NCBI GenBank assembly: GCA_043732185.1
Contig: JAYTHY010000046.1
Span: forward strand, 96,001-160,000
Direction: 5' to 3'
Length of the DNA: 64,000 nucleotides
Origin: Fibrobacteria bacterium
GTDB lineage: Bacteria; Fibrobacterota; Fibrobacteria; UBA11236
The notes beneath the pieces were generated by a model. It made no database searches. It was not told the DNA's origin and was given only the letters and a program-made list of their open reading frames with translations. The translations under genes and the position numbers were made by a program. Shown one piece after another: positions 4,904-54,571 of this stretch. Each line of letters begins with the position of its first letter. Within the stretch, counting starts at the first letter, position 1.

Positions 4904-5133
4904 GCTTTTCAAAGTCAAAAGCCACTTATTGTTGGTAATCGCCCATTTTAAGCCAAAATAAGCATATGATTCCGTCTAAGCGCTTCCAAAAATGAGAGCA
5001 GTATGTTGCGTATTGGCACTCCAAAATAACCCATTTCCATTATATTCTTCTTAAATTAACAGCCCAAGGTAAGGCCGTGGAACACCTTACCGCCGCACTA
5101 TGTACACAGGACAACTTTTTCACCAAAGGATTC

Positions 5134-8100: not shown

Positions 8101-9390
8101 GCGTTTGACCCGGTCAAAAAGGCGTATATCAAGGATACTGACGGAGATGGAAAGGCAGACAAGGTATTCATCGTTTTTGAAAAGAAGCTTGCCCATTTGC
8201 CTTCCACGCTAGGCTCCCAATGGAATGGCGACAGTTCGGCATTCATAGCCGTACAAGCTGGAAAACTTTCCTTCCTCCCAGGTTCCGATTCCACTATTGT
8301 GGTGGCGGATTATACTCCCAACCCATTTGGACAGGATTTGACCGCCCCTAAGGCGGGTCAGGCGCCTAAGGCCCAACTTCCTGCCGGCGACGCGCTCTTT
8401 AACGGCCAGAACCCCGTACTCGAGGATTCCATTGGACCTGTTATCATTTCTGCCTTTAAACGTCCACCCAATGTCAATGCATTGATTCCCAATGATCCCA
8501 GCTTTAATCATGACACCTTGCGCATCACTCTTTCCGAACCGCTGAGAGCCGGGGTGGATTTCAAGGACATGATTAAGTTCTCGACCACCTGCGGCGACTA
8601 TGCCAATGCGATTACCTTGGTAGCCATTAATAACCCTGTCCCCGATGCCAATGGTACCTATACAGTTATCATCGACAATTCAGTCTCTTCCTCACCACAA
8701 ACCGGAAATTGCATCTTCCTCAATGCGGACAAGGGGAAATTTACAGATCTCAAATTCAATCCCCCAGTTGTTCATGGTGTTCCGTTAGAAGGGGCTAACC
8801 GCAATCTCAATATCCAGCTCTTCCGCGGCTTCCCGCCTGTGGCAGGATTAGATGCCAACTCCTCCAATTTTCAGGTCGCCGTTCAGGACCCACATGATCC
8901 CAAACAGCTCGGTATTACGACTCCTGGCGTAGACCCGGTTACGGGAGCGCCCAATTTGCAGGTCGTTTGGATTCCACCCGCTAGTTATGCTCCCAATAAG
9001 ACCCCCCCAGGCGCCAACGTAGCCGTTCCTAGCCTGAACACCATGCCCAGCGGCAATCGGGAAACAGCAACGCCGGTACTATTGCCAGGCACGCTGAGCA
9101 CCGTGCAGGTGGTCAGTACAGCACCCTATATCGCGCATATTTCCATTTTCGACACGTATGGAAACTTCGTGTTCGCGTCCACCCAAACCTTTGGAGCCAA
9201 TGGTGAGATGCAAAACCGGGCGAGAGTCGTACCCAAGGGTTTGGTCAGTTACTTGTGGTGGGATATGAAGGATAAGAACGGCCAGCTAGCAGGCCAAGGT
9301 GTTTATGTTTGGAAAGTTCGGTTTGAATTCACAGGCGGCAAGCAAGAAATCCAGTACACACGTACCGGCATCATGCGGACCCATCGATAA
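5134..9390 (+). CDS. Fibro-slime (PA14-related) domain surface protein with CHB_HEX_C-like domain, Ig-like module and FlgD-Ig/CTD-like C-terminus
   Basis: AAGGA RBS before ATGATG at 5134/5137; signal peptide. Fibro-slime signature NFGFTMELHSEFTY...FNFTGDDDVWVFVNGKLIIDLGGVH...DFFFAERH; C-terminal WDMKDKNGQLAGQGVYVWKV. Confidence 0.9.
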   Translation: MMNSRNVTALSMVLGFVLASFAPSLGQAPATLTLKVKLRDLPESPLPNFHPDFNTYCCGTDGGFVDANILTNGTVDTTVFKNDNRNPKLISALNAGGTRFFTDNPPGPTPYFDQWFNDDPSTDKNRPFLADLVFNNIGTPEVPLYEFNDQTFFPMDDLASGGQWQNLPGNTLSPFGTTPGSNPPHNFGFTMELHSEFTYLAGTNQVFNFTGDDDVWVFVNGKLIIDLGGVHSAASKSFTLDAATASAYGLVDYGKYMLDFFFAERHETSSTCRITTSIPLSRNIVATPVATPGATKGFPTQLNVTLATPTPDAKIYYTTNGTTPDNNSTPYTIGILITSTTTLKAIAYKTGYIKSEVMTADYTKKFVASTLDILDQNGNPLSGGYITELNTSYTVKVTTTQAGLTSLSPKASTTPGGLDLETLVLGTKVDQGTSYLFSGTSPFAITTTAIGNNKTEAKFYDSLIVRWTDTTFGSTDIAEKHVLVRPAPVQGRAYFSHNANGTDTVDQYTGTETTLYLIVVDEVLPTTLTPKVTLVTTPTPISGHTADNLTLNLVPIVGKPGRYVATIPVDIILTTSTADGRLQLLVGDFIKATYTDPMDVETPAVANAGFGVAPEIDANLQFTDALGGNVLPAGFHYSPANGKLFLTYSDDWAGGAILTKSVALTIVNTNGATTGTPDAETFNVTLNLTKHTGSTGIWEGSITLVDGPSITPGNGKAETYVLGTVHAVVTSHTKTATAGQSVSDDLLVAYPNQDPVITITGNGGPGAVITRTDDSLKVTITDQSISSATDTLYAVLSCTESGDKVNIRLIETTPGVYKSSIISKSEGASVVDGVLQCKSTDNIKVTYTDPAYGDIKPVSIILDNPVTPKLYFTTSILSDVPISSVSENITSTFVAVLVAHDPDINTVNIIPLTFTSIQGESETFNAVETGPATGIFKVLVPYGFVTGAITANQKVEGKITPQVLDNRVNITASANVESVPVKTDIVLVAAFDPVKKAYIKDTDGDGKADKVFIVFEKKLAHLPSTLGSQWNGDSSAFIAVQAGKLSFLPGSDSTIVVADYTPNPFGQDLTAPKAGQAPKAQLPAGDALFNGQNPVLEDSIGPVIISAFKRPPNVNALIPNDPSFNHDTLRITLSEPLRAGVDFKDMIKFSTTCGDYANAITLVAINNPVPDANGTYTVIIDNSVSSSPQTGNCIFLNADKGKFTDLKFNPPVVHGVPLEGANRNLNIQLFRGFPPVAGLDANSSNFQVAVQDPHDPKQLGITTPGVDPVTGAPNLQVVWIPPASYAPNKTPPGANVAVPSLNTMPSGNRETATPVLLPGTLSTVQVVSTAPYIAHISIFDTYGNFVFASTQTFGANGEMQNRARVVPKGLVSYLWWDMKDKNGQLAGQGVYVWKVRFEFTGGKQEIQYTRTGIMRTHR

Positions 9391-14533: not shown

Positions 14534-15463
14534 TCATGGTAGTTTTAAAAACGCTTCGATTTTGAGTTTCTCTTCCGGCGTCCAGTCCTTGCTTTTAAGA
14601 ATATCACCGGGTCCTGCAACCGCCAATTTCTGGGCCGTCTTTGTAATATCATCGAGGACTTCTTTAATTTTGTTGAGCACAAGTTTTTTGAACAAGCCCA
14701 GGTTCATGATGCTGTTGATCATTCCATTCCCGGGGAAAACCAGTAACTTCATTTTATAGTGCAAATGTCCGGGCTGAGCCGGCACCGGCGCATAATTGAA
14801 ATCCATCAATGCGGGTCCCCGTAACGTCCACCAGGCCAATGTGGCAATGCCATAACCAAAGTAGAACAGGCGCCTTTCCTTGGCCGATCCAGAGATTAGT
14901 GTAGCATCTCCTTTGAGACGCTTGCCTTTGGTTCCCTCAAAATGATTGTGCGCTGCATCCACATAGACGGCCGTATACGGCTCTTTCTGAAAATAGCTGA
15001 CCAGGCGCGCTGCCAATGGCAAATCGGCCAAGAGGTAAGCCAGACGGGCCTCGCTGATGGGAATGTCCTCTTCCACGAGGTAAATAACCCGATATTCCAT
15101 TCCAAGAAATCGATACAATCGAAATCCAAGAACGGGATGGCCGGGATCGATGCCACGCGCATTGAGCAGCCTGGCTTCCAGACAACGCGTGCTGTCATAG
15201 GTGAATTTGGGCTTTGTAACTAAAGAACGGTCGGGACAAAAGCCTCTCGGCATGGGTAGACTGCAATTCCAAATCAAATTGCAATATTCCGTCTGGGCAT
15301 CAGAAATACGTGCCGGTTGGGGCGCTACAGCCTTTTGAGGCGCAACAACGGGCTTAGAATGGGCGCTATCATGCGTTGAAGGAGCTGCCCCCGCCGTTCC
15401 GACGACGCACAGGACCACTCCAAGAGCCATGGCCAGATATTTTCGGAACGGGACTACGATCAT
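14534..15463 (-). CDS. Hypothetical secreted protein
   Basis: ATG 2 nt after the fabF stop with a GAGG RBS. Signal peptide (LAMALGVVLCVVGTAGA), Pro/Ala linker and a 4-Cys segment; no family recognised. Confidence 0.75.
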   Translation of the reverse strand: MIVVPFRKYLAMALGVVLCVVGTAGAAPSTHDSAHSKPVVAPQKAVAPQPARISDAQTEYCNLIWNCSLPMPRGFCPDRSLVTKPKFTYDSTRCLEARLLNARGIDPGHPVLGFRLYRFLGMEYRVIYLVEEDIPISEARLAYLLADLPLAARLVSYFQKEPYTAVYVDAAHNHFEGTKGKRLKGDATLISGSAKERRLFYFGYGIATLAWWTLRGPALMDFNYAPVPAQPGHLHYKMKLLVFPGNGMINSIMNLGLFKKLVLNKIKEVLDDITKTAQKLAVAGPGDILKSKDWTPEEKLKIEAFLKLP

Positions 15464-15465
15464 CC

Positions 15466-16710
15466 TCAGGAAAACTTTTTGAAAATCAAACTCGCATTGT
15501 GTCCGCCGAATCCGAATGAGTTCGACAGCACTGTCTGAATGGGTCTTTCTATGGCCTGATTCGGAACGTAATTCAAATCGCAATCTGGATCTGATTCCTG
15601 CTGATTGATGGTAGGATGCACAATCCCTTTGACCAAGGCCATGATGAGCGCCACAGCCTCAACAGCGCCGGCAGCCCCCAAGGTATGGCCGATCATCGAT
15701 TTGGTGGAATGCACCAGTAATTTGTCTTTGGCATGATCGCCGAAGCAGCGTTTCATGGCCATGGTTTCACCCGCATCACCCAATGGTGTAGAGGTACCAT
15801 GGGCGTTAACCAGGTCGATGTCGCTGGGATTCATCCCCGCGGAAGCAAGGGTTTTTTTCATGGCCCGATAGGCGCCGGCTCCATCGGAGCAGGGTGCAGT
15901 AATATGATAGGCATCGCAACCTTGGCCATAACCTACGATTTCAGCATAAATCCGTGCGCCCCGTGCTTTGGCATGCGCCAATTCCTCCAGAACTAAAACA
16001 GCGGCACCCTCACTCATGACAAAGCCATCTCGACCTTTGTCGAAAGGACGTGAAGCCCCAGCCGGATCCTCATTGCGGGTTGACAGGGCCTTCATATTTC
16101 CGAACCCGGCGAAAACCATTTCGCTCATTGTGGATTCCGAACCACCCGCGAACATGATATCGGCCGCACCGCGCTTCACTATTTCATAGGCTTCACCCAT
16201 GCTATGGTTGGCACTGGCACAGGCGGAAATAACCGTGAAATTGGGGCCTTGCAAATTATTTTCAATGGCAAAATAAGCCGGTACTGTATTGGGTAATATC
16301 ATCGGGATAAAAAAAGGAGAAACCCGTTTGTGGCTTTTCTCTATCATCACGCGCGTTTCAGATTCAAATGTTGTTGCGCCGCCCATTCCCGTTCCTATAG
16401 AAACGCCGGCCATTTCCGGATCGAACTTTCCGGACTCCAAACCCGAGTCTCGCATGGCCTGCGTAGCGGCCACATGGGCATAGATGATGGCGCGATCCAG
16501 ACGACGGGCCATTTTCTGATCCTTGAACCAAGCCATATGGTCAAAGGCGGGAACCATGCCGCCGATTCTGGTGTTCATGGTGGCATTGTCAAAGCGATCC
16601 ACCACGCCGATTCCGGATTCACCTTTGGCCAGCCTATTCCAAAAGTCCTCGACAGTCAATGCCAGGCAATTGACTGTGCCCAATCCTGTAATAACGACTC
16701 TTCTGGTCAT
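15466..16710 (-). CDS. fabF: 3-oxoacyl-ACP synthase II
   Basis: RRVVITGLG, catalytic SACAS, NAHGTSTPLGD, STKSMIGHTLGAAG and SNSFGFGGHN. Confidence 0.96.
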   Translation of the reverse strand: MTRRVVITGLGTVNCLALTVEDFWNRLAKGESGIGVVDRFDNATMNTRIGGMVPAFDHMAWFKDQKMARRLDRAIIYAHVAATQAMRDSGLESGKFDPEMAGVSIGTGMGGATTFESETRVMIEKSHKRVSPFFIPMILPNTVPAYFAIENNLQGPNFTVISACASANHSMGEAYEIVKRGAADIMFAGGSESTMSEMVFAGFGNMKALSTRNEDPAGASRPFDKGRDGFVMSEGAAVLVLEELAHAKARGARIYAEIVGYGQGCDAYHITAPCSDGAGAYRAMKKTLASAGMNPSDIDLVNAHGTSTPLGDAGETMAMKRCFGDHAKDKLLVHSTKSMIGHTLGAAGAVEAVALIMALVKGIVHPTINQQESDPDCDLNYVPNQAIERPIQTVLSNSFGFGGHNASLIFKKFS

Positions 16711-16722
16711 GATTTGTCCTTC

Positions 16723-21517: not shown

Positions 21518-21642
21518 TAGGCCCTCTTTGAAAGCCGCTAAATTACAAAAAAATGGCTGAAATGCTAAGGGATCGGGGCTTTTCGGCGGTTTTTCAGGGT
21601 TTTAGGATGTGGGAACAGGGGAAATGGACCCCTTGGGTCTGA

Positions 21643-23736
21643 TTAAAATGGCCGTACGTTTTTATTGATTTTGATGTTATCAAAAATTGTAGAATGCGAC
21701 ACCCAGCGCACGGTAGCGACCTCTTTAAATTGGGGTCCAAAATATAGCGTCTTTGGAATATAATCTCGATTCAGTTCAAAGGACTGTGAAACAGTGGACG
21801 AGTCTCTTTTTACCCCCACGAAAGTGAGAGAACTCTCATTCAGACGATTGAATTGGCCCACATCGATGGAAATAAGTCCGAAAAGATTGTCGTCAACGTT
21901 TAGCACTTGATTCATAATTTCATCCCTTTTAGTTAAATAATTTATGCCATCAGCTTGCCCATTGATTAGGCCCGTTGACCCATTGGAAGGGAACCCTTTA
22001 AGGCCAACAGTTCGAAATGGAGCGGCATTAAGAAAGCCTCCAGATAATAGCATGAATCCTTTTTCGTCATAATAGAAACCGTGGGAGAAAAGCTTATTGT
22101 CGGCGTGTGAAAGGGACTCGAAATCCAAATTCACGGTATCAGCGGAATCTTTTAGTCCAATGAAATTTGCCCTAAGCGCCTCTCTTTCCTTTCGAATAAT
22201 AGTGGGCATGGAAACGGAATAGCGACTGGTATCCGTGGGCTGATACATTGCATTCCTAATTTTACCCATTTCCTTTTCGTCTTTATCAATACCCAGGTGA
22301 ATGGACCAAATTGGCAGCATCCGTTCATAAGTAACCATATGGATAATTAGAGCTTCTTTATCAATGGATTGCCAACTAATTTGAGCTTGTTCCAAACCAA
22401 AATCCTGATTATTTACCCACTTGCCGGTTAATCGATCTACCAAAAGTAGGTAGGGGCGTATTTCTTTTCCATCAGGTCCAAGATTATATCCCGTACTAAA
22501 TGGTGTTTTGCGCTGCAAACGCATTTTAGGAAAGGGGTTGATACCAAATTGTATTGACGTTGGTTTATTTGGATTTAATCTACCCAGATCGAAATTACCA
22601 AGGACAATCATGTACCGACATCCCACACCCGAAATCCTAATTTCTACAAATCGTTCTGGACCGGACGCCTCGACAACGTTCATTTCAACTTGGTCCAACT
22701 GTTTCATCCAACCGTAGTCGAATGTCACAGCATCTTCAGGTCGATAAAAGCCCTTATCGGTAAATTTAGCCAAGCGAACAGGAATTTCTAATACATCAGC
22801 ATAAGTATGATATTGGTCTCGATTTAACACCAAGCCAAACCAGTCTTTGTACATCTCTTCTTCATCTAATTCGAAAAGCTCCCGTTTGGCTCGGTGGCTA
22901 AGTTCCAAAATAGATGCTTTTATTGGTCGTTTTACTTTGGTGAGACTTGAAAAAGGAATGACCTCTGCTGCGGCTAATTTCGAAAGTTCAGAGTATTTGA
23001 TATAGGGATCAAATCCTAAAGTTGGGTTTTTTATTTTTACGAGCAATCGATACAATTCGGGGCTTAATGAAAACCAACTGTGTACAAGTATTCGAAAGCG
23101 TTGCGACTGTTGCGGTGAAGCCTGCGTGGAATCAAACTTAGCATAGTATTTACTGTTTATTACGAGCTCCCACTTACCCGCGTCTAAACAATTGTTAAAA
23201 ACACCAGCCTGATAGGTTCGATTAACAGATTCAATGACATTCTTTCCGCTATTTTTGGCAAGTTTCCAGGCGAACGCGCCTTCCTTTTTGTAATAAAGAA
23301 TTCCAAACCTTTCGAATTCTTTGAGCAGAAATTCTGCGTATTTAATTCCGCTGTTTTGAGTAATGACTGGTACCAAATCAAGGAGGTCGACTGAATGAAG
23401 AATAAAGGTATTGCCAGCATCCGTCTTAAATTCCAATTCAACCAAAGCCTTGGTTGTTTCCTGGACTGGTGAAAGGAAAATGGATAGCTTGGTAAACTTA
23501 AGTCCTGCCATGGAATCTTGATATACAAGGTCTTTTTCAGCTGGGTCCTTGGCATAACTTAATACCGGAGTGTCGACAGTCAGATCAATTCGGTTCCCTG
23601 GTAGTGATTTAAAAAGACGGGTAAACTCCTCAATACCATTTTCACTCTGTGCCTTTTGAGATTTAACCCCGGTTCCTGGGCCTGAGCAGCCCAGCAAAAC
23701 CAGACAAAACAGCCAAATCCGATAATCGAAAAACAT
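21643..23736 (-). CDS. Hypothetical lipoprotein with a C-terminal jelly-roll-like domain
   Basis: Lipobox LLGC after MFFDYRIWLFCLV (alternative GTG start at 23799); AT-rich. The C-terminal ~165 aa (LDFESL...YDEKGF...LISID...FDNI) resemble the lectin-like body of PEP-CTERM proteins. Confidence 0.72.
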   Translation of the reverse strand: MFFDYRIWLFCLVLLGCSGPGTGVKSQKAQSENGIEEFTRLFKSLPGNRIDLTVDTPVLSYAKDPAEKDLVYQDSMAGLKFTKLSIFLSPVQETTKALVELEFKTDAGNTFILHSVDLLDLVPVITQNSGIKYAEFLLKEFERFGILYYKKEGAFAWKLAKNSGKNVIESVNRTYQAGVFNNCLDAGKWELVINSKYYAKFDSTQASPQQSQRFRILVHSWFSLSPELYRLLVKIKNPTLGFDPYIKYSELSKLAAAEVIPFSSLTKVKRPIKASILELSHRAKRELFELDEEEMYKDWFGLVLNRDQYHTYADVLEIPVRLAKFTDKGFYRPEDAVTFDYGWMKQLDQVEMNVVEASGPERFVEIRISGVGCRYMIVLGNFDLGRLNPNKPTSIQFGINPFPKMRLQRKTPFSTGYNLGPDGKEIRPYLLLVDRLTGKWVNNQDFGLEQAQISWQSIDKEALIIHMVTYERMLPIWSIHLGIDKDEKEMGKIRNAMYQPTDTSRYSVSMPTIIRKEREALRANFIGLKDSADTVNLDFESLSHADNKLFSHGFYYDEKGFMLLSGGFLNAAPFRTVGLKGFPSNGSTGLINGQADGINYLTKRDEIMNQVLNVDDNLFGLISIDVGQFNRLNESSLTFVGVKRDSSTVSQSFELNRDYIPKTLYFGPQFKEVATVRWVSHSTIFDNIKINKNVRPF

Positions 23737-23795
23737 ACAACTTAAGCGCTTTAATTGGTCAATTCCTATGGAACCAACCAACTGTAGGTGGCTGG

Positions 23796-24755
23796 TCACG
23801 GAAAAAAATGTAAAATGATGCTATCAGAAACGGTTACATGGCCGCGAACATCCGTGGCCCGGATCTTTAAAATCGCCGAGTCCTGCGGTGGCGCTTCGAA
23901 GGATAGATTGTATAAAGTCTGGACATTCAAATAACGACTGGAAAATTGGGTGGCCTCAGTTTTCACAACGCCATCCAAAAGCACCTCGATTAACTTTATC
24001 TCTATATCATCCGAGGCTTGAACAGTTACATTGACAGGAGCGGTAATGGCTATTCTCGTACCCGTAGCCGGACTCAGGATGCTAACCGCAGGAGCCTGAT
24101 CAGGTAAGGCATTGAACTTGTAGTCATAGCCTCCACTCGCATTTACTTCGAAGGAAAGATTGGAGAGCGCTAAATCAAAAGGATGGAATGGGCTATCGGA
24201 AAAGTTTTCGTAAACTCCGCTTCCGGTAGAAAGAGTAAAGGTAGAATCCAGGCTCAGATCCTTCGGGCCTTCCATGACGCCGGTTCCAGGGGAAAGGCCA
24301 GTCATGGTGTTATAGTTGTATCCATCGAGATGTAATTCACGGTATATAAACTCAATGCCGCCATCAGGATAAAGAACTACTCGGTAGGTCAATTTTATCC
24401 CTGTTGAGGAGCTTTTTGCGTTCAACATGGAGTTGACCCCATACGGAACGTTTCCATCACTGCCGAAGGTTAAATTGCCGCTATAGGTTAAGAACTCACC
24501 CCGTCGAATAAGGATGACTCCAAGCATCGTCGCTCCATCGACAATGGCAGTCATTGAATCCGAATGCTCCAAATTTCTGTGGCCATTGATTAACTTCTGC
24601 GCTGTAACGATAATCTTTCCTTCATCAGAAACAATTACGGAAACAGAAAAATTGCCTGCGACATCACTTACTCCACTTCGATTCCTAATATTTACTATGG
24701 CGCCAGAAACCCCGGTCTCGGCTTTATCCACAATTTTTCCTTGTACCAGGATCAT
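23796..24755 (-). CDS. Carboxypeptidase-regulatory-like + partial nidogen-like + Ig-like protein; possibly the frameshifted tail of the upstream LVIVD gene
   Basis: Paralogous to the last ~380 aa of 24752..28312 (LYPDGGIEF, TDVRG shared). No signal peptide or RBS; ATGA overlap. Confidence 0.65.
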   Translation of the reverse strand: MILVQGKIVDKAETGVSGAIVNIRNRSGVSDVAGNFSVSVIVSDEGKIIVTAQKLINGHRNLEHSDSMTAIVDGATMLGVILIRRGEFLTYSGNLTFGSDGNVPYGVNSMLNAKSSSTGIKLTYRVVLYPDGGIEFIYRELHLDGYNYNTMTGLSPGTGVMEGPKDLSLDSTFTLSTGSGVYENFSDSPFHPFDLALSNLSFEVNASGGYDYKFNALPDQAPAVSILSPATGTRIAITAPVNVTVQASDDIEIKLIEVLLDGVVKTEATQFSSRYLNVQTLYNLSFEAPPQDSAILKIRATDVRGHVTVSDSIILHFFP

Positions 24756-27700
24756 GGAGGCGGGAGCAAAAGAATTGTAACCGGAGTCGATAACGATATA
24801 TTTCCGCGAACGTCGGTTGACTTCGCTTGAACTACAACTGAATCAAGTATGGGACCTATGAAAGAAAACGAGTAAGGCGGATTAGTTAGCGTTTCCGAAA
24901 TAATGCCATCGATTAGAAGTGCGACCGACTGAACGGCAATATCATCATTGGAATTGACCTGCACATTGACAGGTTTGCCCTGAACAAATTCAGTCCGGGA
25001 TAATGGAGAAACAATAGTCACCGTTGGCGCCGCATCCCGCAAATACCCATAAGTAACATCATAATTCCCAGTACCATTTACATTAAAAGTTAGGTAGGCT
25101 AATCCGAGGTCAAAACCTTTGGGTGGCCAGGATGCGTCAAAAACCTCATAAGGTCCATTCTGGTCTGTCGAAGTAAAGGGTGCCTCTGCGGTATAATCGC
25201 GCGCACCTGCATAGCTGCCGTTGCCAGAAGTCAACCCAACCATTGGGCCAGACCAAGGCTGGATTTGCGGGTAGCTGAATTCAATGCCTCCATCAGGATA
25301 TAAGGTAGCCTGAAAAGTCCGTGGCGTTGAACCAGGTCTGGGCCAGTTACTCTGCATTTTATACCAAGTAAATTGAACTCTATCCGAATATTGTTTTACA
25401 TAAACGGTACTATCAAAATTAGGCTGCAATTCATCCCAAAAAGGGGCGATGATTGGGATAGACAAGTCGCTCCAGCGACTTAACTGTTCAAAGTTTGGAG
25501 AATTAAAGGATAGGTTACCGTGATAATTCACGAAGATTCTGTTATAGGTAATGCCGTAGAATGGGAAGGTGAATCCGTTAGCGAAAATAATTTCTTCAAA
25601 TGGATTTGCGGTTAAGGCTAATGGCATTCCTATATCGGTTGAATACCCCCCAATTTGCAGCAAAATATTTCCAACATTTGTTGTTCCACTGGCAATGGCA
25701 ATAATGGAATCTGAAGTGCCTTTTTGGTACCGGGTACCCATTTTTATTTGCGCCGAGGCCACCAGCTTTTTCTGATAGATTGTAACCGAAGGAATAGAAA
25801 AATAACCATTGGCATCACTGGTATCACTAGACCTGTCTACATAAACAATTGCCCCCTCAACTGGGTCATGTGTACTCGATAGAATTCTGCCCATCACCAA
25901 GGTAGTTGGACGAGGATTAACATGAACAATCACTAAGTTGGATGTGGTCTGGTTACCAGCCAAATCAAATGCCACTGCCTTAATTGAAATTGTTCCAATA
26001 CCATCTTTGACCCTATAGGTATGTTGAAAGGGAGTATTACGAACGCTAGTTACTAAGGCGTCATTTACATAGAAGTCAACCTTGGCAACATAAATATCAT
26101 CATAAGCAGATGCGGTAATCACAAAGGAATCGCCTTCCAAAACAGCAGTGTCAGTTCTTGGAGCATAGATCTGAATAACAGGGTGCACGTTTCCCTGATC
26201 ATTTTGGAGGAGATATTGTCCTATCTGTAGTCCACCCGGTGCGGAAACGCCATTCCTTACCAAGGTTCCCACGTTCGTCATATAGGCATACCCATTGTGC
26301 AGATGAACATTGGAAGTTTGAACCTGGCCCCTCTTAAATAAAAAGGTGGAAATGATTGGTGCAGTGCGATCAAAAACGTTAAAAATTGGATTTCGAAAAG
26401 TAGAATTAGCATCCGTGGACAAGGCAAAAGATCCTTCTACGCCAATATGCCTTGCCTGATATAAAGTAGAACTTGCTCCAAGAATGATTGGAGTAGCGGG
26501 ATTGCTAATATCAATCAGGACTATGCCCCCACCACTTCCAGGAAGCAATCCATCCGCAATATATGCGGTATTCCCAATGACCTCGACATCTGAGCTATTT
26601 GAGGTTAAACCGCCCGTATAAACTTGGCCCATTACTACCGGGTTAGTGGGATCAGCAACATTTATGGTCTGAACCGGACCACGGCCGCTGGTAATAACTG
26701 CGATAGAGCCAGAAACGGCCACGCCTGTCAGACTCCCGGCAGGATAATTGATCCGACCTAATTGAACCGGATTTGCAGAGTCTACGACCGAATAAATAGA
26801 CAAACCTAAACTGTCAACAACATAAGCCTTAGTACCTGAAACAAAAAGATCAAAGTTTATTGCTGGCGTAGTCGCACTTCCAAGGATTTCCGGTAGTGAT
26901 GGATTTGAAATATCTACAATAAGCAATTGGTTTCCATCAGCGACATAGGCTCTATTATTCACCACCTTGACATCATTGGCATTTCCCGGTGTATTTATGG
27001 TTCCTACGAGTATTGGAAGGGACGGAATCGAAATATCGACTATATGTAAACCCGCTACCCCAGAAGCCACATAGGCAAAATTCCCATTCACCACCACGCT
27101 ATTCGCATATCCAGTGAGGGGTAAATAGGAAAGTAATCGAGGAGAGAAGGAGATAACATCGGCTTGAATTTGCACGGTGTGTCCACTATTGGATATGGTA
27201 ATCGTATCAAGGCCTGGCCTCACTGCAAAAGCCTGCCCAGAAACTATTCCAAAATTAATGACATTCAAATTACTCGATATATAGGTCGTGCCTTTAAGGG
27301 TACTGGTCAAATTCAAACTTGTGCCATCACTCAATATTCCGGTAACTGTTAACTGACGCGTTACATCAGCGGGTTGAATGGTATTGGTAACTAGGGTAAA
27401 GTTTCGAGGATTTACCTGCAAAGAAGTCAAGGCTAATGCAAGGTTGAAGCTTAATGGGTCGGTGGGATTACTGCTCGTCAGAATTTCCAGACCATCACGA
27501 ATGCCATCCCCATCGGTATCAGGGGACAAAGGATTAGTTATAAATCCATCCGCTCCCGCAATCAATTCTTCACTGTCCGAGATTCCATCTCCATCGGTAT
27601 CGGCATTTCGGATGGCGGTTCCGGCCTGAAACTCCTGTAAATTAGTCAAGCCATCTCCATCTAGATCTAATGCGCCATCGAGGGGATCGTTTGGATTTAA

Positions 27701-28312
27701 ACCTTGCGCGATTTCATAATCATTGGGCATGCCATCCCCATCTGCATCCGTTCCAGTGGATACGGTGATGAAAATGGTTTTGAGAATGGATTCGTATGAG
27801 GCTGTAATCAGGACTCTTCCGCTTGAAACAGCTGTAACAAGGCCATTCGAGTCGATGGTGGCTACAGAGCGGTTGGTGCTTAGGTAGGTTATGCCAGAAT
27901 CGGATCGAGTTACGTTTTTGGTAGAGCCATTGGGCATGGTAGCGATAACGGAAAGTTGGGTGGTGGCGCCGATGGCACTGAGGACGGGGTTTGCGGTTGA
28001 GAGAGTGATATTGGTGGGGACGCGAATTTCAGGCTTGAATTTTATGGAGTCGCTGCCATTGCCTACATTCGCAAGTACTGAAATTATGGAAGATTCACCA
28101 TAGCGTGTCCCAGTGGAGTCTTTGCAGGTGGCCCTAACTCGTGCGCGGCTAACGCCTGCAGGCACATTGAATATTTGATACGAGCCATCGCTCTGTACCT
28201 TGGCAGTTCGATTCAAGATGGAAACCACGCAATTGGTATCCAGTTGCTGGGCATTGAGGAGTGCCGCCGTATACCTAAGCGCGATGATTAAGATTAATAT
28301 CAATTTATTCAC
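24752..28312 (-). CDS. Large secreted Ig-like / TSP3-type Ca-binding / LVIVD-repeat / nidogen-like surface protein
   Basis: GTG start with an AGGGAAG RBS; signal peptide. Big_2-like domains, repeated DxDGDG motifs, LVIVD repeats (AYVASGVAGLHIVDIS, AYVADGNQLLIVDIS), and FTFPFYG...IAPFWDEL (NIDO-like). Confidence 0.85.
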   Translation of the reverse strand: MNKLILILIIALRYTAALLNAQQLDTNCVVSILNRTAKVQSDGSYQIFNVPAGVSRARVRATCKDSTGTRYGESSIISVLANVGNGSDSIKFKPEIRVPTNITLSTANPVLSAIGATTQLSVIATMPNGSTKNVTRSDSGITYLSTNRSVATIDSNGLVTAVSSGRVLITASYESILKTIFITVSTGTDADGDGMPNDYEIAQGLNPNDPLDGALDLDGDGLTNLQEFQAGTAIRNADTDGDGISDSEELIAGADGFITNPLSPDTDGDGIRDGLEILTSSNPTDPLSFNLALALTSLQVNPRNFTLVTNTIQPADVTRQLTVTGILSDGTSLNLTSTLKGTTYISSNLNVINFGIVSGQAFAVRPGLDTITISNSGHTVQIQADVISFSPRLLSYLPLTGYANSVVVNGNFAYVASGVAGLHIVDISIPSLPILVGTINTPGNANDVKVVNNRAYVADGNQLLIVDISNPSLPEILGSATTPAINFDLFVSGTKAYVVDSLGLSIYSVVDSANPVQLGRINYPAGSLTGVAVSGSIAVITSGRGPVQTINVADPTNPVVMGQVYTGGLTSNSSDVEVIGNTAYIADGLLPGSGGGIVLIDISNPATPIILGASSTLYQARHIGVEGSFALSTDANSTFRNPIFNVFDRTAPIISTFLFKRGQVQTSNVHLHNGYAYMTNVGTLVRNGVSAPGGLQIGQYLLQNDQGNVHPVIQIYAPRTDTAVLEGDSFVITASAYDDIYVAKVDFYVNDALVTSVRNTPFQHTYRVKDGIGTISIKAVAFDLAGNQTTSNLVIVHVNPRPTTLVMGRILSSTHDPVEGAIVYVDRSSDTSDANGYFSIPSVTIYQKKLVASAQIKMGTRYQKGTSDSIIAIASGTTNVGNILLQIGGYSTDIGMPLALTANPFEEIIFANGFTFPFYGITYNRIFVNYHGNLSFNSPNFEQLSRWSDLSIPIIAPFWDELQPNFDSTVYVKQYSDRVQFTWYKMQSNWPRPGSTPRTFQATLYPDGGIEFSYPQIQPWSGPMVGLTSGNGSYAGARDYTAEAPFTSTDQNGPYEVFDASWPPKGFDLGLAYLTFNVNGTGNYDVTYGYLRDAAPTVTIVSPLSRTEFVQGKPVNVQVNSNDDIAVQSVALLIDGIISETLTNPPYSFSFIGPILDSVVVQAKSTDVRGNISLSTPVTILLLPPP

Positions 28313-28322
28313 TTATACTTCC

Positions 28323-28376
28323 CTAATCGTCCAAATTTTGGAATTCAAAAAATGGGATCCCAAATAATTTCAACAT
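28323..28376 (-). pseudogene. 5' relic of a third copy of the 207-aa tandem paralog
   Basis: AAAGGAAACAAGCAG-ATG TTG AAA TTA TTT GGG ATC CCA TTT TTT (MLKLFGIPFF) nearly matches the start of 29072..29695 (MLKLFGVPFF), then diverges and stops after 17 aa. Confidence 0.8.
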
Positions 28377-28411
28377 CTGCTTGTTTCCTTTGAAAAGGTG
28401 TCACAGTCTAT

Positions 28412-29035
28412 TTATTTCTTGTAAATTACTGAGGAGTCAGCATGTCGCAACATACCCTGCAGGTTTTGCATAAACCCGATGTTAAAATCACCGCCCTTCT
28501 TTTTATAAACCCCATGTGATTTCACAAAATACAGCGTCCTGAAATAGGATGGATCACCTTTAATATTTTTATAAAAAACAATAATCAAATAAGGTGTCTC
28601 AAAAACGGCCTTAATCTCAATGCTTTTCGCATCCTTCCAATAACCGAAAAAATTTTGTCTGTTTTTTCCAACCTTTAGCATGGAATCTATCCAAGGCCGG
28701 CTTGATTCATCGTGTAGCTCTAACATTTTCTCTTTTTCACCTGAAATTGCAAAAAATAAAAAATTGGAAACGGCTTCAAATGGTGTCTTTGGCGCGGCGA
28801 TCGGACTAGGCGAAATTTTTACAATATCTGAATCTGGAAATACCTGACCTAAAAAATGAACCTCTCGAATTTCCCTGGTAAAGAGACTTTCCTGTGCTGG
28901 TATTTGGTATTTCATGTACTCTTTTTTTGATTTATCAAATTTAACGATTAGGGAGTCAGGAGAATAATTTTGAAATTTAGCCGCCATAATAATCGCCGGC
29001 ATGAAAAAAAATAGATGTCCAAATAATTTCACCAT
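28412..29035 (-). CDS. Hypothetical secreted protein, tandem paralog B (NTF2-like pattern; candidate immunity or accessory protein)
   Basis: 207 aa, ungapped ~70% identity (hand count 145/207) to 29072..29695. AAGGA RBS, hydrophobic N-terminus, TPFEAV..F....SG.KEKM..L pattern. Confidence 0.85.
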   Translation of the reverse strand: MVKLFGHLFFFMPAIIMAAKFQNYSPDSLIVKFDKSKKEYMKYQIPAQESLFTREIREVHFLGQVFPDSDIVKISPSPIAAPKTPFEAVSNFLFFAISGEKEKMLELHDESSRPWIDSMLKVGKNRQNFFGYWKDAKSIEIKAVFETPYLIIVFYKNIKGDPSYFRTLYFVKSHGVYKKKGGDFNIGFMQNLQGMLRHADSSVIYKK

Positions 29036-29071
29036 TTTCTTATTTCCTTTAAAAAAGTTGGGATAGTCAAT

Positions 29072-29695
29072 TTATTTCTTGAAAATTACAGAGGAGTCAA
29101 CATGCCGCAACATGCCCTGCAGATTTTGTATAAATCCGACAGCAAAACTACCCGATTTCTTTTTATAAATCCCATTCGACCTCACAAAAAACAGCATTCT
29201 TAGGAAGGATGGATCGCCATTGACATTTTTATAATACACTATTATCAAATCAGGTGTTTCAAAAACAGCTTTAATTTCAATACTTTTAACATCCTTCCAA
29301 GCACTGAAAAACCTTAGGCTGTCTTTCTTTTGCTGAAGCATGGAATCCACCCATGCTCGACTTGATAATTCATGGAGCGCTACCATTTTCTCTTTATCGC
29401 CAGAATTCACAACAAATAAGTAGTTGGCAACTGCTTCAAATGGCGTCCTGGGATCGGGGATTCGACTAGGAAAAATTTTAACAATATTTGAATCTGGAAA
29501 TATCTGACCTAAAAAATGCAACTCTCGAATTTCTTTGGTAAAGAGGCTTTCATTTGCTGGTATTTGGTAGGTAACATAGTCTTTTCTTGATTTATCAATT
29601 TTAAAGATCAATGAGTCTGGAGAATAATTTTGAGATTTGGCCGCCACAATAATTGCTGGAATGAAAAAAAATGGGACCCCAAATAGTTTCAACAT
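29072..29695 (-). CDS. Hypothetical secreted protein, tandem paralog A (NTF2-like pattern; candidate immunity or accessory protein)
   Basis: 207 aa, starts 13 nt after the stop of the giant gene, with an AAGGA RBS; very AT-rich. Confidence 0.85.
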   Translation of the reverse strand: MLKLFGVPFFFIPAIIVAAKSQNYSPDSLIFKIDKSRKDYVTYQIPANESLFTKEIRELHFLGQIFPDSNIVKIFPSRIPDPRTPFEAVANYLFVVNSGDKEKMVALHELSSRAWVDSMLQQKKDSLRFFSAWKDVKSIEIKAVFETPDLIIVYYKNVNGDPSFLRMLFFVRSNGIYKKKSGSFAVGFIQNLQGMLRHVDSSVIFKK

Positions 29696-29708
29696 TTTCT
29701 TATTTCCT

Positions 29709-32700
29709 TTAAAATAGTGGCCCTAAATCCCACGATACTGCATACGAAATTAACTCGACTTCGGTTGCCATTATAATACTGGCCGTTGCTGTAAGTGTTG
29801 GCGCTGCAATGGTAGGCAAGCTAAACTCCCAATCAGGATAACAAAGCTTTCCTTTTGCAAAAACTAGCGATAGAGCACCTTCAGTTTGCAACTTGATGAG
29901 ATCACACGTCCCAATAACGCACCCTGCAGCTTGAATAGCAACCGTTCCGCTCCCAGATATATCCCCACACACTCTGTCACTATTACACCCTGTCGTTAAG
30001 TTCCCGCTTCCAGTCCCTGTGACTTCCAAAGCAACGGAAAATGAAACTTGAATTTCTGCCCCCAAATTAGGAACGTAGTAACTGTATGAAGGAGTATTGC
30101 ATCCAGCTATTTTTCCAGAAAGCGAGCCGCCTATACCGACAACTTCCTTGTCTTCACAATTGCATGCTTGGTGACTCTTTGTACCAAAAAGACTCCATCT
30201 AATAGTTGGAGAGCAAGCCTTGGTTGCCTCAATATTTTTCAAATAGTTGTTCAATGCGTTTTTATCCCAGCCCAAACCACTTACAGTTTCAGAAAAATCT
30301 GGATTGATTATGCCAACACTGGTAGAAGCACTAGTTGTACCTGCCTTTATCGTGACGATACCTGTACCTTTTCCGCCTGCTAGAGAAGGGACGACCCCAT
30401 CGAAATTGACAGCAGGAGAAAGTTCAAATCCCGCTGGATTTGTAGTTATCTTAAATTTGGATTTCTCTAGAGCTTCACCGGCCTGAAAATATTTGCAAGT
30501 TGTAGAAACCGACGATACTCCAACACAAATACCAAAACTCGACTTTTCAGCCACTCCTCCACCGTTACAATTCCAGGTGGCCTTATTGTAGAATGTTCCT
30601 GGAGTAGTGCATGTAACATCATCAAAATGCAAATGGTTAGAATTGCCTGCAGGTTGACTCCAAGACAAGCTTCCGTTTTCTGGATTAGTCGTCGCATTAT
30701 AGCGAATTTCCTCACCCATCCCAACAATAGGATTTTCAACCGAAACATTTACTTCACATTGCGAACAAGTACCCGTCGGATTCCCCGGCCCACCGCAATG
30801 CCAGCCACCCTTCACAATCCCAAAGCCCTTATCCGAGGTCATCGTTGCCCCATCCTCGCTCACAGTTCCAGTTCCGATGCTCACATAGGTCCCTAAATCA
30901 TGATCAAAAGAATAAAAATGCGTTTGCTCCCCAGGCTTCAGTCCGTTTACATTAGGAAAAGTTATTGGCGCAGGTGGGTCAAATTTAACCTGAGGAGGCC
31001 CAATCGAAACAATAAACCTCGGCTGCATTCCCTCTCCAGGAGGCATGGGAATTTTATCGGCATGCACAGCCGTGACCGTAATGGTATGGTCATCCAGATC
31101 CGGAGGGAAGGTGGCCGACCCTGCGGGTATTTTTAAAGAAAAGCCTGGGATCTCTGAAAGTGTTATAATCTGCTCCGTCGATGCGCTCGGAACCTTACCT
31201 TCTGCATTGTTTCTAGCTACCAGATACATCGGCATCCCGATATCATTATTCTTGCCGCTGATAGCATTCACCTCAAACATCAAGGTCACCCAATCGCCGG
31301 GCTGCGTGGCCGTTGTTCCATCGACATGCAGATGCAGATTGCCTACGGGGGTGTTGGAAAGTTGATATTGCCCTGCACTATTGGTTGTAGTCTGTTGCCC
31401 ATTTTCTTCGATACGTACCGTTACGCCTTGTAGAGGCTGATTGCTATTGTCCAGGATGACACCGCTTACCTTTGTTTCTGAAGGCGGGCCTGGAATATAT
31501 CCGGAAAGCACGAAAATGGCCGGCTGACTGGGATTGCCTGCGAAGGAAGCTTCCACAAGGTTATTATCCCGTCCCTCTTGTAATCCTAAAGTGAAAGAAG
31601 CCACTGCGCGCCCATCTTCTCCCGTTATGGCGGAGTCCAAATTCTGCCCTTGGAAATGGCCGCCGCCTGTTTTGACTTTGAATTCAACCATCATGCCGGG
31701 AATTGGATTACTGGCGCTATCGGTAACAATGGCGACAAGTGGATGTGGGGCTCCGTTTCCAGCCAAGCCCCGTTGCATATCACCGGAGGCGGTCAAAATG
31801 CGTTGCGCCAATTGAGTTTTTGCATTCGCATGGAAAACGACAGCGCCAGCAAAGCCCTCGGCCACAGCTGTAACCTCATTGGCTCCAGGTCCTGCGCGCT
31901 TGCCTAGCACAAACGGAACCGATGCCAATCCATCAGCATCCGTAGTTACCCGCAATGTTCGAGCATTTCCCGTAAAAGAGCCATCCCCCACGCTAACGTG
32001 GAACAGGACAATCTGCCCGGCGACTGGTTGATTCAAGGAGTTTTTGATTGAAACAACGAGTTGCTGAGGGAGAAGCGCGAAAATAGTGCCGCTTTGATTG
32101 TTACCAGAAAACAGGGTCAGAGAGGGAGCTACAGAAACGTCAAGCGTTACATGCGATACGGCACTTTCCACATTCCCGGCCCGGTCAGTTGCTACGGCTG
32201 TAATCGTATTCATGCCGGAGGACAAAGGAAGCACGACGGAAAAAGTATTGTTAACTACTACAGCCTCGATGCCATTCACCTTGACCGAGGGCATGCTTTG
32301 GCCTTGGACATCGGCAATTCGATCCGAAACGCTTCCTGAAACCGTGACCGAATGCTCTCGCATCACCAAGCTATCTGCTGGCGAGGTAATGTAGATTCGT
32401 GGTTTTTCCCGATCTAAAGTAACCGTGAGCGTGGCGGAAACTTGATTCCCGTCTTGGTTAGTCGCCGTGGCCATCAGCGTGTTCCGACCATCAACCAATG
32501 GAACCAACGTCTCAAAATGATTTCCAGAAATGGCCGTGGGAATGCCATCAATACGAAGATTGGTCAAGACACCGTTGGTTTCCCCCGCAACAAGAATATC
32601 GGCAGTTCTAACCGTACTTAAGTTGGCTGGAGAAGTTATGATAAGGGCTTGGGGTGGCAAGGTACAGGTAAAGTCCGACAAAAGGGTTGCCGTATTCCCA

Positions 32701-34619
32701 ATGGCATCCTGCACACTACTCGAAATATGATGTTCACCTTCACTCAAAGAAAGCACAGCCACAGCCGAGTCCGCGGAATGGATAAGGTTGGTGGTAATAT
32801 TTATTCCGTCCAAAAGCACTTGCAGCGTGGCTTGGGCTATAGGTGATAGGGAATCGCTAAAGATTATTTTTAGCGGGACTGAGAGATCGGCCAGTACTTG
32901 GTGGTTAACGGGATTAACTGAGATTCTAGGAGGGATGGTATCCAAGGTCACAACAACCTCAGCTTTACCCAGATTTCCAGCTGCATCGGTTGTATCGACC
33001 TTTAACACATTCGCTCCCGGTGCCAGAGAGAATGTTTTTGATCGCGCTGCGGAGTCTACTGTATAGTGCACCGTGATGGTGCTTGCGGATACAACTGTGT
33101 CTCGCCCCGGGCTCGATATAACCACTACGGGAGGATGAGAATCGCGGTTAATGGTGATCGAGGCCGATCCCGAATTTCCTCCTAAGTCCGTAAAGGAGCG
33201 CGTTACCACGTTGGGACCTTCGGTCAGGACTTCAAAGAGTTGATTGGATTGATCAAGTCCATCCACAGTCCAAGCGATTTCAGATGCCGGTTCTTTAGTA
33301 AATGATCCATTTAGCGGACTTGTGATGGCAACTATAGGTGCCCGGGTGTCCAATGTGACTTTGGCAGTATCTGCACCACGGTTCCCGGCCGCATCCGTGG
33401 AATCCACCACTAGGAGATTTAATCCTTCTACCAAGGTAAAAGTCTTATTAAATCCGGTAACGCCATCGACTTGATAGCTTATTGCAAAAGTTGAATTACC
33501 AACGACCGTGTCGCGACCTGGGCTGGATAGGACTACTACGGGTGCATGTGAATCGCGATTAATGGTAATCGAGGCTGTGCCTAAATTCCCTGCTAAATCT
33601 GTAATGGAGCGCGTCACCACATTGGGACCTTCGACCAGAACTTCACTGCGTTGGCTAGATTGATCAATTCCATCCACAGTCCAAGTGATTTCAGATGCTG
33701 GTTCTTTAGTAAACGACCCATTTAATGGACTTGTAATGGCAACTATAGGCGCCTGGGTGTCCAATGTGACTTTGGCAGTATCTGCAGACCTACGACCAAA
33801 AATATCCACGGAATCGATGATTACCCGATTTACTCCCTCGACCAATTCCACCTGCCGATTGAAGGCCAGCCCATTCACTGTGTATCCTACGGAGAAGGGA
33901 GTCTTGTTTACCAAGGTATCACGAGATGGGGACGTAATAATCAGTGAGACTGGAGGGGGTGGAGGTTGTTCGGCACCCATCCATTGGATGTCATCAAGGT
34001 ATACCTGACCTGAAGCATCGGCTGCTTTAAGCATTAAGCGTCGAATGGTTCCGCTTCCTCTCATATGACCCTGTTTTACAACAGTGACTTCACTGGTACG
34101 GTTTGGCGATCGATCCGCAAAAACCTGATATACCCCGCTGGAAATATTTCCGACGAGGCGCATATAAATCCATTGCCCAGTAACGTTGGAAAGACTTCCT
34201 ACTTGATTGGCGCAAACTCCAACGCGAAATGCCGCCTTGTGATCGACATTACCAACTAAACTGTCAGAAGGGCCAAAACAAAGATTGGAATTGGAATTCA
34301 ACCTGAACCAGCGCCATCTAATTTCAAAGGCTCCTGTTAATATCTGCATGGGACGGAAATACTCCGTACTTCCAGTGACTACACAGCTTAAATACTGATT
34401 GCCGCCACTTGCCTGAATCCTGAATTAATGGGCATTTGCTTGCCCGCATGAAGCCTGAAATTTCCATCCATCTTGACCATCAAGGATTTGGCCGCTTAAA
34501 TATTTCGGTGAAGCAAAATCAAGAGTGTCTGCCCAAACGAACGGTTGGCCAAGATACACTACCAACATCAAAAAGGCTTTAAAGACGCTCAAATTGAAAC
34601 GAGGGAACAAATGGATCAT
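29709..34619 (-). pseudogene. Giant secreted Ig-repeat/Big_1/carboxypeptidase-regulatory/ZU5-like protein with a Cys-rich C-terminal domain, interrupted by one in-frame TAA
   Basis: ORFs 34425..34619 (signal peptide) and 29709..34349 share a frame and are separated only by TAA at 34425-34427 (...QANAH*FRIQASGGNQYL...RPMQILTG). Confidence 0.75.
32930..33950 (-). repeat. Intragenic tandem repeat, ~2.5 copies of a 411-bp (137-aa, two Ig-like domains) unit
   Basis: CAATGTGACTTTGGCAGTATCTGCA occurs at 33351 and 33762; ADTAKVTLDT.APIVAITSPLNGSFTKEPASEI.WTVDG occurs twice. Confidence 0.85.
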
Positions 34620-34780
34620 GCATAGAGCTTAGATAAATCGGAACGTTTTACACATCCCGCACGCCATTTTATTCAAAAATCCATCGACCAAGGCTCATTA
34701 ATTAATTATTTTTCTGCCCTAAAATTTGGCAAATCTCTCTAAAAGCGCACACATAAAACTCTTTGGTAGCAGGATCATAA

Positions 34781-54232: not shown

Positions 54233-54571
54233 GATGTATTCCTTTGGTGATTGAATAAGCAGGGACCATCGGCCCCTTTGCGAATTAGACATCGCTATCG
54301 CCAAACCAGGTAACATTTTTTCTGTCTGTCGGCCTTGGCTGTCCCATTCTGAGAGGCTATGATGGCAGAGGCCAATCCGAATAATGCAATTGTGACGGGC
54401 AAGTCAAAAGGTAAATGGCTGAATGGAAGAGCACATTTAGCTACTGTGGGATAGGTAGCCATGAGCATGATCCAGGTATCGGAATTAGACACCAAACCCG
54501 ATTATATTTTTAGTTGCTCCTGGTAGCAGGGAGTGAAACGTGGGATTATTGCGCTGGTAGAGCGCGGCACC

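Follow-up and report, generated by a model that had tools for sequence, protein, structure and literature searches.

An exchangeable tip and co-varying small genes suggest a polymorphic effector/immunity cassette in a two-giant locus of Fibrobacteria

Introduction

Why would a bacterium encode two giant exported proteins side by side, end one of them in a tip that differs from strain to strain, and place genes for small, apparently exported proteins directly behind that tip? The question is raised by a locus on the minus strand (positions 21643..34619) of a stretch of DNA of 64,000 nucleotides from a Fibrobacteria bacterium (contig JAYTHY010000046.1), which is referred to as the window. Read along its strand, the locus comprises the genes for giant A, two small paralogs, giant B, a remnant of the latter, and a predicted lipoprotein. 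A first-pass annotation, made from the sequence alone, had taken it for an undescribed polymorphic toxin/immunity or variable-adhesin system. The open reading frames (ORFs) it had listed are all present on the minus strand, and the N-terminal motif LDTNCVVSILNRT and the motif GWHCGG to which it had drawn attention were both found in the proteins of the locus. The answer favored here, with a probability of roughly 0.6, is that the locus represents one of many alleles of a Sec-exported polymorphic effector/immunity cassette that is widespread, is built around two giant proteins, and releases its effector part by autoproteolysis.

Results and Discussion

The tip of giant A changes at a sharp junction

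Giant A (29709..34619, minus strand) consists of a stalk of Ig-like repeats, a ZU5-like domain, and a C-terminal tip. A congener (G002) carries the same locus at the same chromosomal place, and the two DNAs were compared by blastn. Identity was 96.6% over positions 14476-24376, 79.9% over 24482-28267 (giant B), and 97.6% from 30756 up to the contig end. Between 28267 and 30756 there was no match; this interval takes in both small genes and the final 350 codons of giant A. At the protein level, 215 residues of giant A are 100% identical to the G002 protein up to ...GWHCGGPGNPTGTCSQC, after which identity is ∼36%; it runs 13 residues beyond the GGWHC motif before it falls. Contigs of further sequencing runs behave in the same manner. 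One from run X3 follows the window at 97-99% identity over 30756-34696 and then reads into the start of the G002-type tip, and one from run X5 has a loose end at 30762 and continues into a third sequence. The contigs of run X6 cover the small paralogs and none of them the tip; they are fragmentary and permit no inference. Together, blastn, protein identity, and the run contigs place the allele junction, the last bases common to the window and its relatives, at 30753..30764 (minus strand). The expectation that the sequence after GWHCGG would vary was thus borne out.

The variable tip proper comprises 348 residues plus the stop codon (29709..30755, minus strand). Other members of the lineage behave likewise: giant A of G021 ends in a tip of 312 residues with an HExxH motif, followed by a different downstream ORF of 223 residues, and that of G008 ends 21 residues past the GWHC motif, with no small gene and giant B directly next. 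In two metagenome loci whose ZU5-like parts are 81% and 84% identical to that of giant A in the window, the tails match DUF922 (33.5 bits) and PLA2G12 (40.6 bits), respectively.

The part of the window protein past GWHCGG contains 15 cysteines in 359 residues. In an AlphaFold2 (AF2) model of giant A residues 1040-1546, calculated from an alignment of 20 sequences, it begins with two Ig-like domains (model residues 158-310; predicted local distance difference test [pLDDT] ∼80) and continues as a Cys-rich, strand-rich terminal part of ∼195 residues with long strands (model residues 312-507). That this terminal part, with its long strands and terminal Phe, is an outer-membrane barrel anchor was considered and set aside because relatives hold soluble enzymes at that position and because the segment is Cys-rich. 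This type of tip is rare, being present in two of 296 genomes of the phylum, G000 included. A word-based homologue search with the tip alone returned nothing at E ≤ 0.001, and look-ups of the tip and of the 718-residue lipoprotein in the ESM Atlas reached best scores of 0.80-0.82 and yielded no lead. Among the tails of the homologues listed below there is one weak relative (P0008, 27% identity over 179 residues); the tail of locus L029 is 23% identical over the entire tip.

The small downstream genes change together with the tip

The first small gene (29072..29695, minus strand) starts 13 nt past the stop codon of giant A and is followed by a second (28412..29035, minus strand). Each encodes a protein of 207 residues with a signal-peptide-like start, predicted to be exported; the two are 70% identical and are the sole copies in the genome. 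What had been called an array of small secreted paralogs is, therefore, a pair of genes, with the spacing as originally given. Copy 1 is a candidate for an immunity gene. In G002, the gene that follows giant A encodes a homologue of 208 residues that is 33% identical, and then comes an unrelated membrane-type ORF of 223 residues.

The predicted co-variation of tip and downstream gene held beyond this pair of strains. A scan of one genome per species gave 154 loci related to the stalk, of which the best 79 were analyzed further. Among the 69 loci with a complete tail, 41 have a small ORF (90-520 residues, start between −60 and +150 nt of the giant A stop). All six multi-member clusters of these small ORFs are each confined to a single cluster of tails. 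Pairs of loci that share a small-gene cluster also share the tail cluster in 15 of 15 cases, compared with 26 of 820 pairs overall, and none of 10,000 label shuffles gave such a result, a count that overstates the significance because related loci are not independent.

By a crude rule, 30 of the 41 small ORFs have a signal-peptide-like start. When they were scanned against Pfam together with the 223-residue ORF of G002, four matched HEAT families above the cut-off and two TPR, and 31 of the 42 matched no family. As for the 207-residue proteins, an AF2 model (pLDDT 82) displays an NTF2-like cone with an N-terminal strand extension. The best rows of a Foldseek search with it were NTF2-like as well, although weak (E 0.017 upward), and all 50 rows listed by VIA-align were NTF2-like or cystatin-like by title (Z 5.9-8.5). 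Among these matches is Tai3 (4hz9_B; Z 7.0, root mean square deviation [rmsd] 3.5, 96 residues aligned), the immunity protein of the type VI pair Tae3-Tai3. No sequence relation was found, the NTF2-like fold is very common and no proof of function, and no type VI genes were seen by Pfam among the ORFs of the window. The 207-residue proteins belong to no named immunity family, with no Pfam match at E ≤ 5, bar one row at chance level, and none in NCBIfam. Their own family is rare, with 22 profile matches at E ≤ 0.001 and eight at E ≤ 1e-10 among 1.84 billion representatives; a metagenome scan with the alignment of the small proteins matched 113 stretches, none of them a relative. Two distant small NTF2-like members, P0130 and P0131, carry a C-terminal extension of ∼170 residues that looks Ig-like by eye.

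A ZU5-like domain ends in the motif that precedes the junction

Upstream of the tip, giant A (29709..34424, minus strand) is composed, in this order, of a head, Ig-like repeats, a Big_1-like domain, CarboxypepD_reg, and the ZU5-like domain. Pfam assigned Glucodextran_B, Big_13, and CarboxypepD_reg; Big_1, at 33.8 bits, was slightly below its cut-off. The domain list of the first-pass annotation was thereby largely reproduced, the ZU5-like domain by way of structure, with one exception: the head, even when the stop codon in it was read through as X, matched no Pfam family, so the label "lectin-like" was not confirmed. The heads, too, differ among homologues.

The ZU5-like domain (30774..31214, minus strand; giant A residues ∼1046-1192, model residues 7-153, pLDDT ∼70-90) was identified with the AF2 model and VIA-align against 48,161 PDB chains. 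The top match was the ZU5 domain of ankyrin (3ud1_A; Z 9.7, rmsd 3.0, 130 residues aligned), accompanied by other ankyrin chains (6m3q_E, Z 9.7; 3f59_A, Z 9.6) and followed by GAIN domains (9mqr, Z 8.4; 4dlo, Z 8.2; 6v55, Z 7.9) and the FIIND of CARD8 (7jkq, Z 7.7). Foldseek with the whole model of 507 residues returned chains of Ig domains only. A profile search of the PDB with 26 ZU5-like domains found three sequences at E ≤ 10, all of them ankyrin ZU5 (E 0.37-0.78). The designation "ZU5-like" is therefore accepted for the modelled fold and not as membership in the Pfam family, whose cut-off is not reached (see below).

GWHCGG (30789..30806, minus strand; residues 1182-1187) lies on the last strand of this domain. 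The model residues G143, W144, H145, and C146 are invariant in the 20-sequence alignment. Of 174 non-redundant sequences, 153 have H-C after GW and eight have H-S; at the second of these two positions, 165 have Cys or Ser. The fold is shared with the animal ZU5, FIIND, and GAIN domains (3ud1, 3f59, 7jkq, 4dlo, and 9mqr; Z 9.7 to 7.7 over ∼130 residues), and the conserved His and Cys or Ser of the present family are found at the domain end, the place of self-cleavage in the animal domains. To judge from this conservation, the exchange of Cys for Ser after GW-H would suit the nucleophile of a self-cleavage reaction, with the putative site before Cys1185.

A second giant accompanies the first

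Giant B (24752..28312, minus strand) is represented in the window by an ORF of 1186 residues with a signal peptide, Big_2, TSP3 repeats, an LVIVD propeller, Big_7, and a module of CarboxypepD_reg, NIDO-like, and Big_7 parts; a deletion of one base truncates it. Pfam families on this ORF are LVIVD, TSP3_bac, Big_2, and Big_7; NCBIfam gave, on the giants, weak matches at the level of repeats to the gliding protein CglD and the cohesion protein MtsD. By tblastn, a homologue of giant B adjoins giant A in 60 of the 79 genome loci, always on the same strand, and follows it in 59 of these 60 (in L029 it precedes it). Of 17 loci from metagenomes, 8 have it as well, and so does each of the four Fibrobacteria genomes with the stalk (G000, G002, G008, and G021). 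The conjecture that the two giants co-occur is, thus, well founded. The conserved part is the first ∼800 residues, with identities of 32-49%.

Compared with its G002 counterpart, an in-frame protein of 1967 residues, giant B is 75.5% identical, versus 98.6% for the gene that follows. It seems that the tip, the small genes, and giant B form a block that is exchanged, or evolves rapidly, as a whole. In DNA, giant B is only ∼80% identical between G000 and G002 (24482..28267, vs L004), with neighboring genes at 97%. The G008 locus is a different mosaic, with identities of 95% for the gene of the 718-residue protein, 43-51% for giant A, and 36-37% for the beginning of giant B.

The ORF of 319 residues behind giant B (23796..24755, minus strand) had been described as a tail module. 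It has no signal peptide and is 29% identical to a module of the 1186-residue protein, and its last 200 residues are 93.5% identical to the end of the G002 protein; it is, in fact, what is left of the 3′ modules of the giant B gene after a frameshift and partial deletion. Next comes the gene for the predicted lipoprotein of 718 residues (21643..23799, minus strand), which matches no Pfam or NCBIfam family. In Fibrobacteria it follows giant B and is present only where the stalk occurs, in 4 of 41 genomes (identity 98% in G002, 95% in G008, and 50% in G021). Five genomes of other phyla yielded no match to it, and hhalign gave a probability of at most 0.3 for a relation of its family to the genes after giant B in other phyla, which are thus unrelated; it is a lineage-specific companion. 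G008 has a second paralog of it, 32% identical, on a different contig (L012; G008:C26:989-2974). In six loci (L049, L085, L087, L099, L101, and L103) giant B is followed by a third gene of ∼520-545 codons, starting between −58 and +20 nt of the giant B stop; its products are 45-66% identical among the six and unrelated to the 718-residue protein.

Relatives carry diverse tails on the same stalk

How far does the arrangement extend? A protein search with giant A residues 1040-1546, in which 7,999 candidates were scored, gave at least 243 proteins at E ≤ 0.001. Among the 120 matches listed, the motif is present in 103, and the alignment to giant A extends no further than residue 1209 in 73 and no further than residue 1239 in 102. 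Beyond it, tails are from 21 to ∼1600 residues long. The C-termini of the 120 are diverse, and no type IX C-terminal sorting domain was found by Pfam or NCBIfam in the locus. The best 79 genome loci stem mostly from Thermoanaerobaculia and other Acidobacteriota, as well as from Nitrospirota, Planctomycetota, Fibrobacteria, and others.

Pfam was run on 29 of the homologous proteins and on 68 tails from the genome loci. Where families were assigned, tails consist of Ig-like spacers (PKD, Big_2) followed by PLA2G12, Peptidase_M15_3, 3D, DUF6973, DUF922, Dicty_CTDC, or an RHS/YD shell. Several genomes harbor the stalk locus more than once, with two to five loci each. On one Thermoanaerobaculia contig, two complete cassettes of giants A and B with different tails (L035 and L039) lie in tandem, ∼14 kb apart. 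A fragment of a ZU5-like region broken by TGA stops (L025; G001:C78:3085-3287) is possibly another decayed copy.

A proposed mechanism and its rivals

How might such a cassette work? By analogy with families treated in passages on ZU5 proteins by Zhang et al (2012; PMC3482391), giant A would be exported through its Sec signal peptide. Its Ig-repeat stalk carries the ZU5-like domain, which is closed by GGW-H-C, then a short linker, and at the C-terminus the exchangeable cargo, composed of Ig-like spacers and a putative effector domain. Giant B, with its TSP3 repeats, LVIVD propeller, and NIDO-like modules, is probably what anchors giant A to the cell surface or displays it there; both giants would first have to pass the outer membrane. 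Probably, the ZU5-like domain severs the chain ahead of the conserved Cys, for which some relatives have Ser, and the cargo so released would act on neighboring cells; the peptidoglycan- and lipid-directed domains of relatives suggest toxic activities of that kind. The exported small protein from the gene directly downstream, which changes with the cargo, most likely protects the producer and its kin, presumably by binding the cargo, and recombination in the linker would swap cargo and partner gene together between strains. The cargo in the window would be the Cys-rich, strand-rich domain, paired with the two NTF2-like paralogs.

Several observations weigh against this reading, besides the mutual dependence of related loci. 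The window tip matches no Pfam family at E ≤ 5, and no known toxin domain was detected in it; the model falls to pLDDT < 50 over the last ∼195 residues; and 48 of the 68 scanned tails match no Pfam family. Nor were orphan tip cassettes found in the genome, the tip having a single match in G000; stand-alone spare tip cassettes with immunity genes are common, though not obligatory, in polymorphic toxin systems. A tip of this sort may, instead, belong to a variable adhesin or a kin-recognition pair, much as TraA and its partner TraB in Myxococcus, with the tip as a binding module that recognizes self or a substrate, the NTF2-like protein as its chaperone, cap, or co-receptor, and a diversity that stems from recognition specificity or from pressure by phages or predators. 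The composition of the window tip (two Ig-like domains and a Cys-rich, strand-rich domain, no enzyme signature) would suit this explanation, as would the adhesion-type modules in both giants (Ig, TSP3, and LVIVD), the weak matches to CglD and MtsD, the variation of giant A heads, and the divergence of giant B along with the tip block (75.5% vs 98.6% for the following gene). It is nevertheless unlikely: in relatives, enzyme domains (PLA2G12, M15 peptidase, 3D, DUF922, and RHS) occupy the position of the tip, the proteins that vary along with the tail are binders of the HEAT, TPR, and NTF2-like kinds, which is also true of immunity proteins in those passages of PMC3482391, and no PA14, MYXO-CTERM, or OmpA family was found by Pfam or NCBIfam.

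The effector/immunity reading is further burdened by the 28 of 69 complete-tail loci that have no small gene, several PLA2-type tails directly preceding giant B; such tails without a small gene would be unusual if self-protection were always needed. These same loci, together with the presence of several cassettes in some genomes (L035 and L039 being two on one contig), point toward exo-enzymes that are displayed and released for feeding or predation. The stalk would then hold hydrolases at a distance from the cell, ZU5-type cleavage would shed them, and the small gene would encode an inhibitor, or a helper in folding, by which the producer spares its own envelope; a proposal of this type is made in PMC3482391, in its passages on ZU5 in large surface proteins with glycohydrolases, lipases, and phosphodiesterases. 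We consider it improbable, as sharp replacement of alleles in near-identical strains, coupled to a downstream gene that matches, is what one would expect of rivalry rather than of the use of substrates, the peptidoglycan-directed domains M15 and 3D fit bacterial targets, and the window tip bears no enzyme signature.

Other reservations about a self-cleaving effector cassette concern the ZU5-like domain, giant B, and the records themselves. Unlike the animal domains, the sequence stays below the cut-off of Pfam ZU5 (PF00791; 14.4 bits vs 21, E 0.048). The classic ZU5-type cleavage site is of the H-F-S type (H-F-S or H-L-T); it is not present in giant A, which has G-W-H-C instead. Nine of the 174 sequences have Gly or Ala at the putative nucleophile, eight of these nine with tails of 302-546 residues. 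No giant B match was obtained for 19 of the 79 loci; five (L038, L045, L056, L093, and L096) have >5 kb downstream and are true misses with this query, and the other 14 are cut short or, in G021, continue on another contig. Finally, most records are metagenome-assembled, and the repeats of giant B may be mis-assembled.

An extended version of the mechanism, which we put forward only tentatively and hold to be somewhat doubtful, is that the A/B cassette constitutes a delivery apparatus of its own, independent of secretion types V, VI, and VII, Rhs shells, and Tc complexes. Giant B would be a calcium-stiffened mount or a target-binding partner and giant A a spear with a ZU5-like joint that snaps on contact, upon which the cargo attacks the envelope of the neighbor; the joint might then be a bacterial forerunner of the cut-and-release of animal FIIND and GAIN receptors.

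Relation to known systems

Contact-dependent growth inhibition (CDI; CdiA/CdiB/CdiI) relies on a giant extended protein with a short conserved motif at the junction to a variable C-terminus and a cognate gene downstream. The locus is alike in its giant protein, the conserved motif that marks a sharp junction, the variable C-terminal domain, and the adjacent cognate gene. It is unlike CDI in that neither the locus nor its flanks gave a match to a two-partner secretion (TPS) domain, FHA repeats, or CdiB, that a folded ZU5-like domain takes the place of a VENN-type motif at the junction, and that the small protein has a signal peptide. More generally, the absence of RHS, VgrG/PAAR, CdiB, and integrase genes noted at first sight was confirmed: neither these, nor YD repeats or a TPS domain, were matched by Pfam or NCBIfam in the ORFs of the locus or its flanks.

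Among the closest known systems are the polymorphic toxins with ZU5 autopeptidases. In passages of their 2012 survey, Zhang, de Souza, Anantharaman, Iyer, and Aravind (PMC3482391) note that ZU5 autopeptidases occur in polymorphic toxins as well as in large surface proteins; ZU5 is N-terminal in the RHS proteins treated there and is tied to the TcdB/TcaC-SpvB route. The resemblance to a polymorphic toxin/immunity locus claimed by the first-pass annotation stands; the word "undescribed" has to be tempered because of these ZU5 autopeptidases, and some members of the present family may already be among the ZU5 proteins that the survey lists. Shared with the toxins of those passages are the Sec signal, a ZU5-superfamily domain, differing C-terminal domains, a partner gene directly downstream, and HEAT and NTF2 folds among the partners. 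In one protein of the family, P0082, the stalk is even followed by an RHS/YD shell. In contrast to the systems described there, the ZU5-like domain stands here directly before the cargo, the stalk is made of Ig domains without RHS, a second giant with LVIVD and TSP3 is present, and the partner proteins are mostly predicted to be exported.

The TraA/TraB kin-recognition system of Myxococcus, a polymorphic surface receptor with a partner (PMC12045341), is similar insofar as a polymorphic surface protein is joined by a partner. It is dissimilar in that no PA14-like, MYXO-CTERM, or OmpA domain was found here by Pfam or NCBIfam and that the relatives have enzyme tails. TraB carries TSP3 repeats, and those in giant B are the sole shared domain.

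No description of the two-giant cassette was found in searches of open-licence PMC full texts and bioRxiv. Its logic is that of polymorphic toxin systems, but three features set it apart: an Ig stalk that lacks RHS and bears a ZU5-like domain right ahead of the cargo, the near-invariant GGWHC junction, and the TSP3/LVIVD partner giant. If the effector/immunity reading is true, the locus stands for a large class of Sec-dependent polymorphic effectors that crosses phyla (Acidobacteriota, Nitrospirota, Planctomycetota, Fibrobacterota, and others). Lacking RHS, CDI, type VI, and LXG markers, such a class would escape today's toxin catalogues. With its GGWHC end, the ZU5-like domain would, in that case, be a sequence handle for mining dozens of unnamed effector/immunity families and a testable bacterial case of ZU5-type self-cleavage right before a cargo, and the LVIVD/TSP3 giant would be an obligate partner in need of explanation.

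The window holds a damaged copy

Both giants bear a lesion in the window. The 5′ piece of giant A (34425..34619, minus strand), which had been counted as a separate ORF of 64 residues, contains the start codon, a signal-peptide-like N-terminus, and ∼40 more residues before an in-frame TAA; it is the signal-peptide end of giant A. The remainder (29709..34424, minus strand) is an open frame of 1571 residues, with a longest ORF from ATG of 1546 (29709..34349). The ORFs of 64 and 1546 residues share one frame and are split by the single TAA at 34427..34425. Base 34427 is A at full depth in the window and in run X2, from which the window may stem. Contigs of X3, X5, and X6 have T there and thus an AAA codon (Lys). 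Because these three runs read AAA, the TAA at codon 65 is a strain-specific nonsense change and not an ancestral structure.

Giant B, relative to G002, has the deletion of one base exactly at the ATGA overlap of the ORFs of 1186 and 319 residues, and it is without >1 kb of the module array of G002; these deletions may be due to mis-assembly of repeated modules. Both small genes are intact. Given the nonsense codon 65 in giant A and the frameshift in giant B, this copy of the locus, judged by its sequence, is probably inactive. It would, if the effector/immunity reading is true, represent a weapon in early decay whose protective genes are still whole.

Composition and surroundings

As had been noted initially, the locus is richer in AT than its surroundings. 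GC content is 0.38-0.47 over 21-31 kb, compared with ∼0.50-0.53 in the flanks, and reaches its minimum (0.377-0.396) over the tip and the small genes. The flanks contain housekeeping genes, namely those for an XPB-type helicase, M16 peptidases, fatty-acid synthesis, leucyl-tRNA synthetase (LeuRS), and cytochrome c. Scans of the locus for promoters and terminators gave fewer sites than did shuffled sequence; one promoter-like site (34732..34705, matching at 10 of 12 positions) lies upstream of the ATG of the signal peptide and is a lead at most. Elsewhere in the window, two minus-strand ORFs of 805 residues (51899..54316) and 349 residues (14534..15583) match no Pfam family at E ≤ 1e-5. Two giant ORFs on the plus strand, of at least 1581 residues (1..4833) and of 1437 residues (5077..9390), have CHB_HEX_C_1 and Fn3_assoc as their sole Pfam matches; they are further large surface proteins, not related to the two-giant locus.

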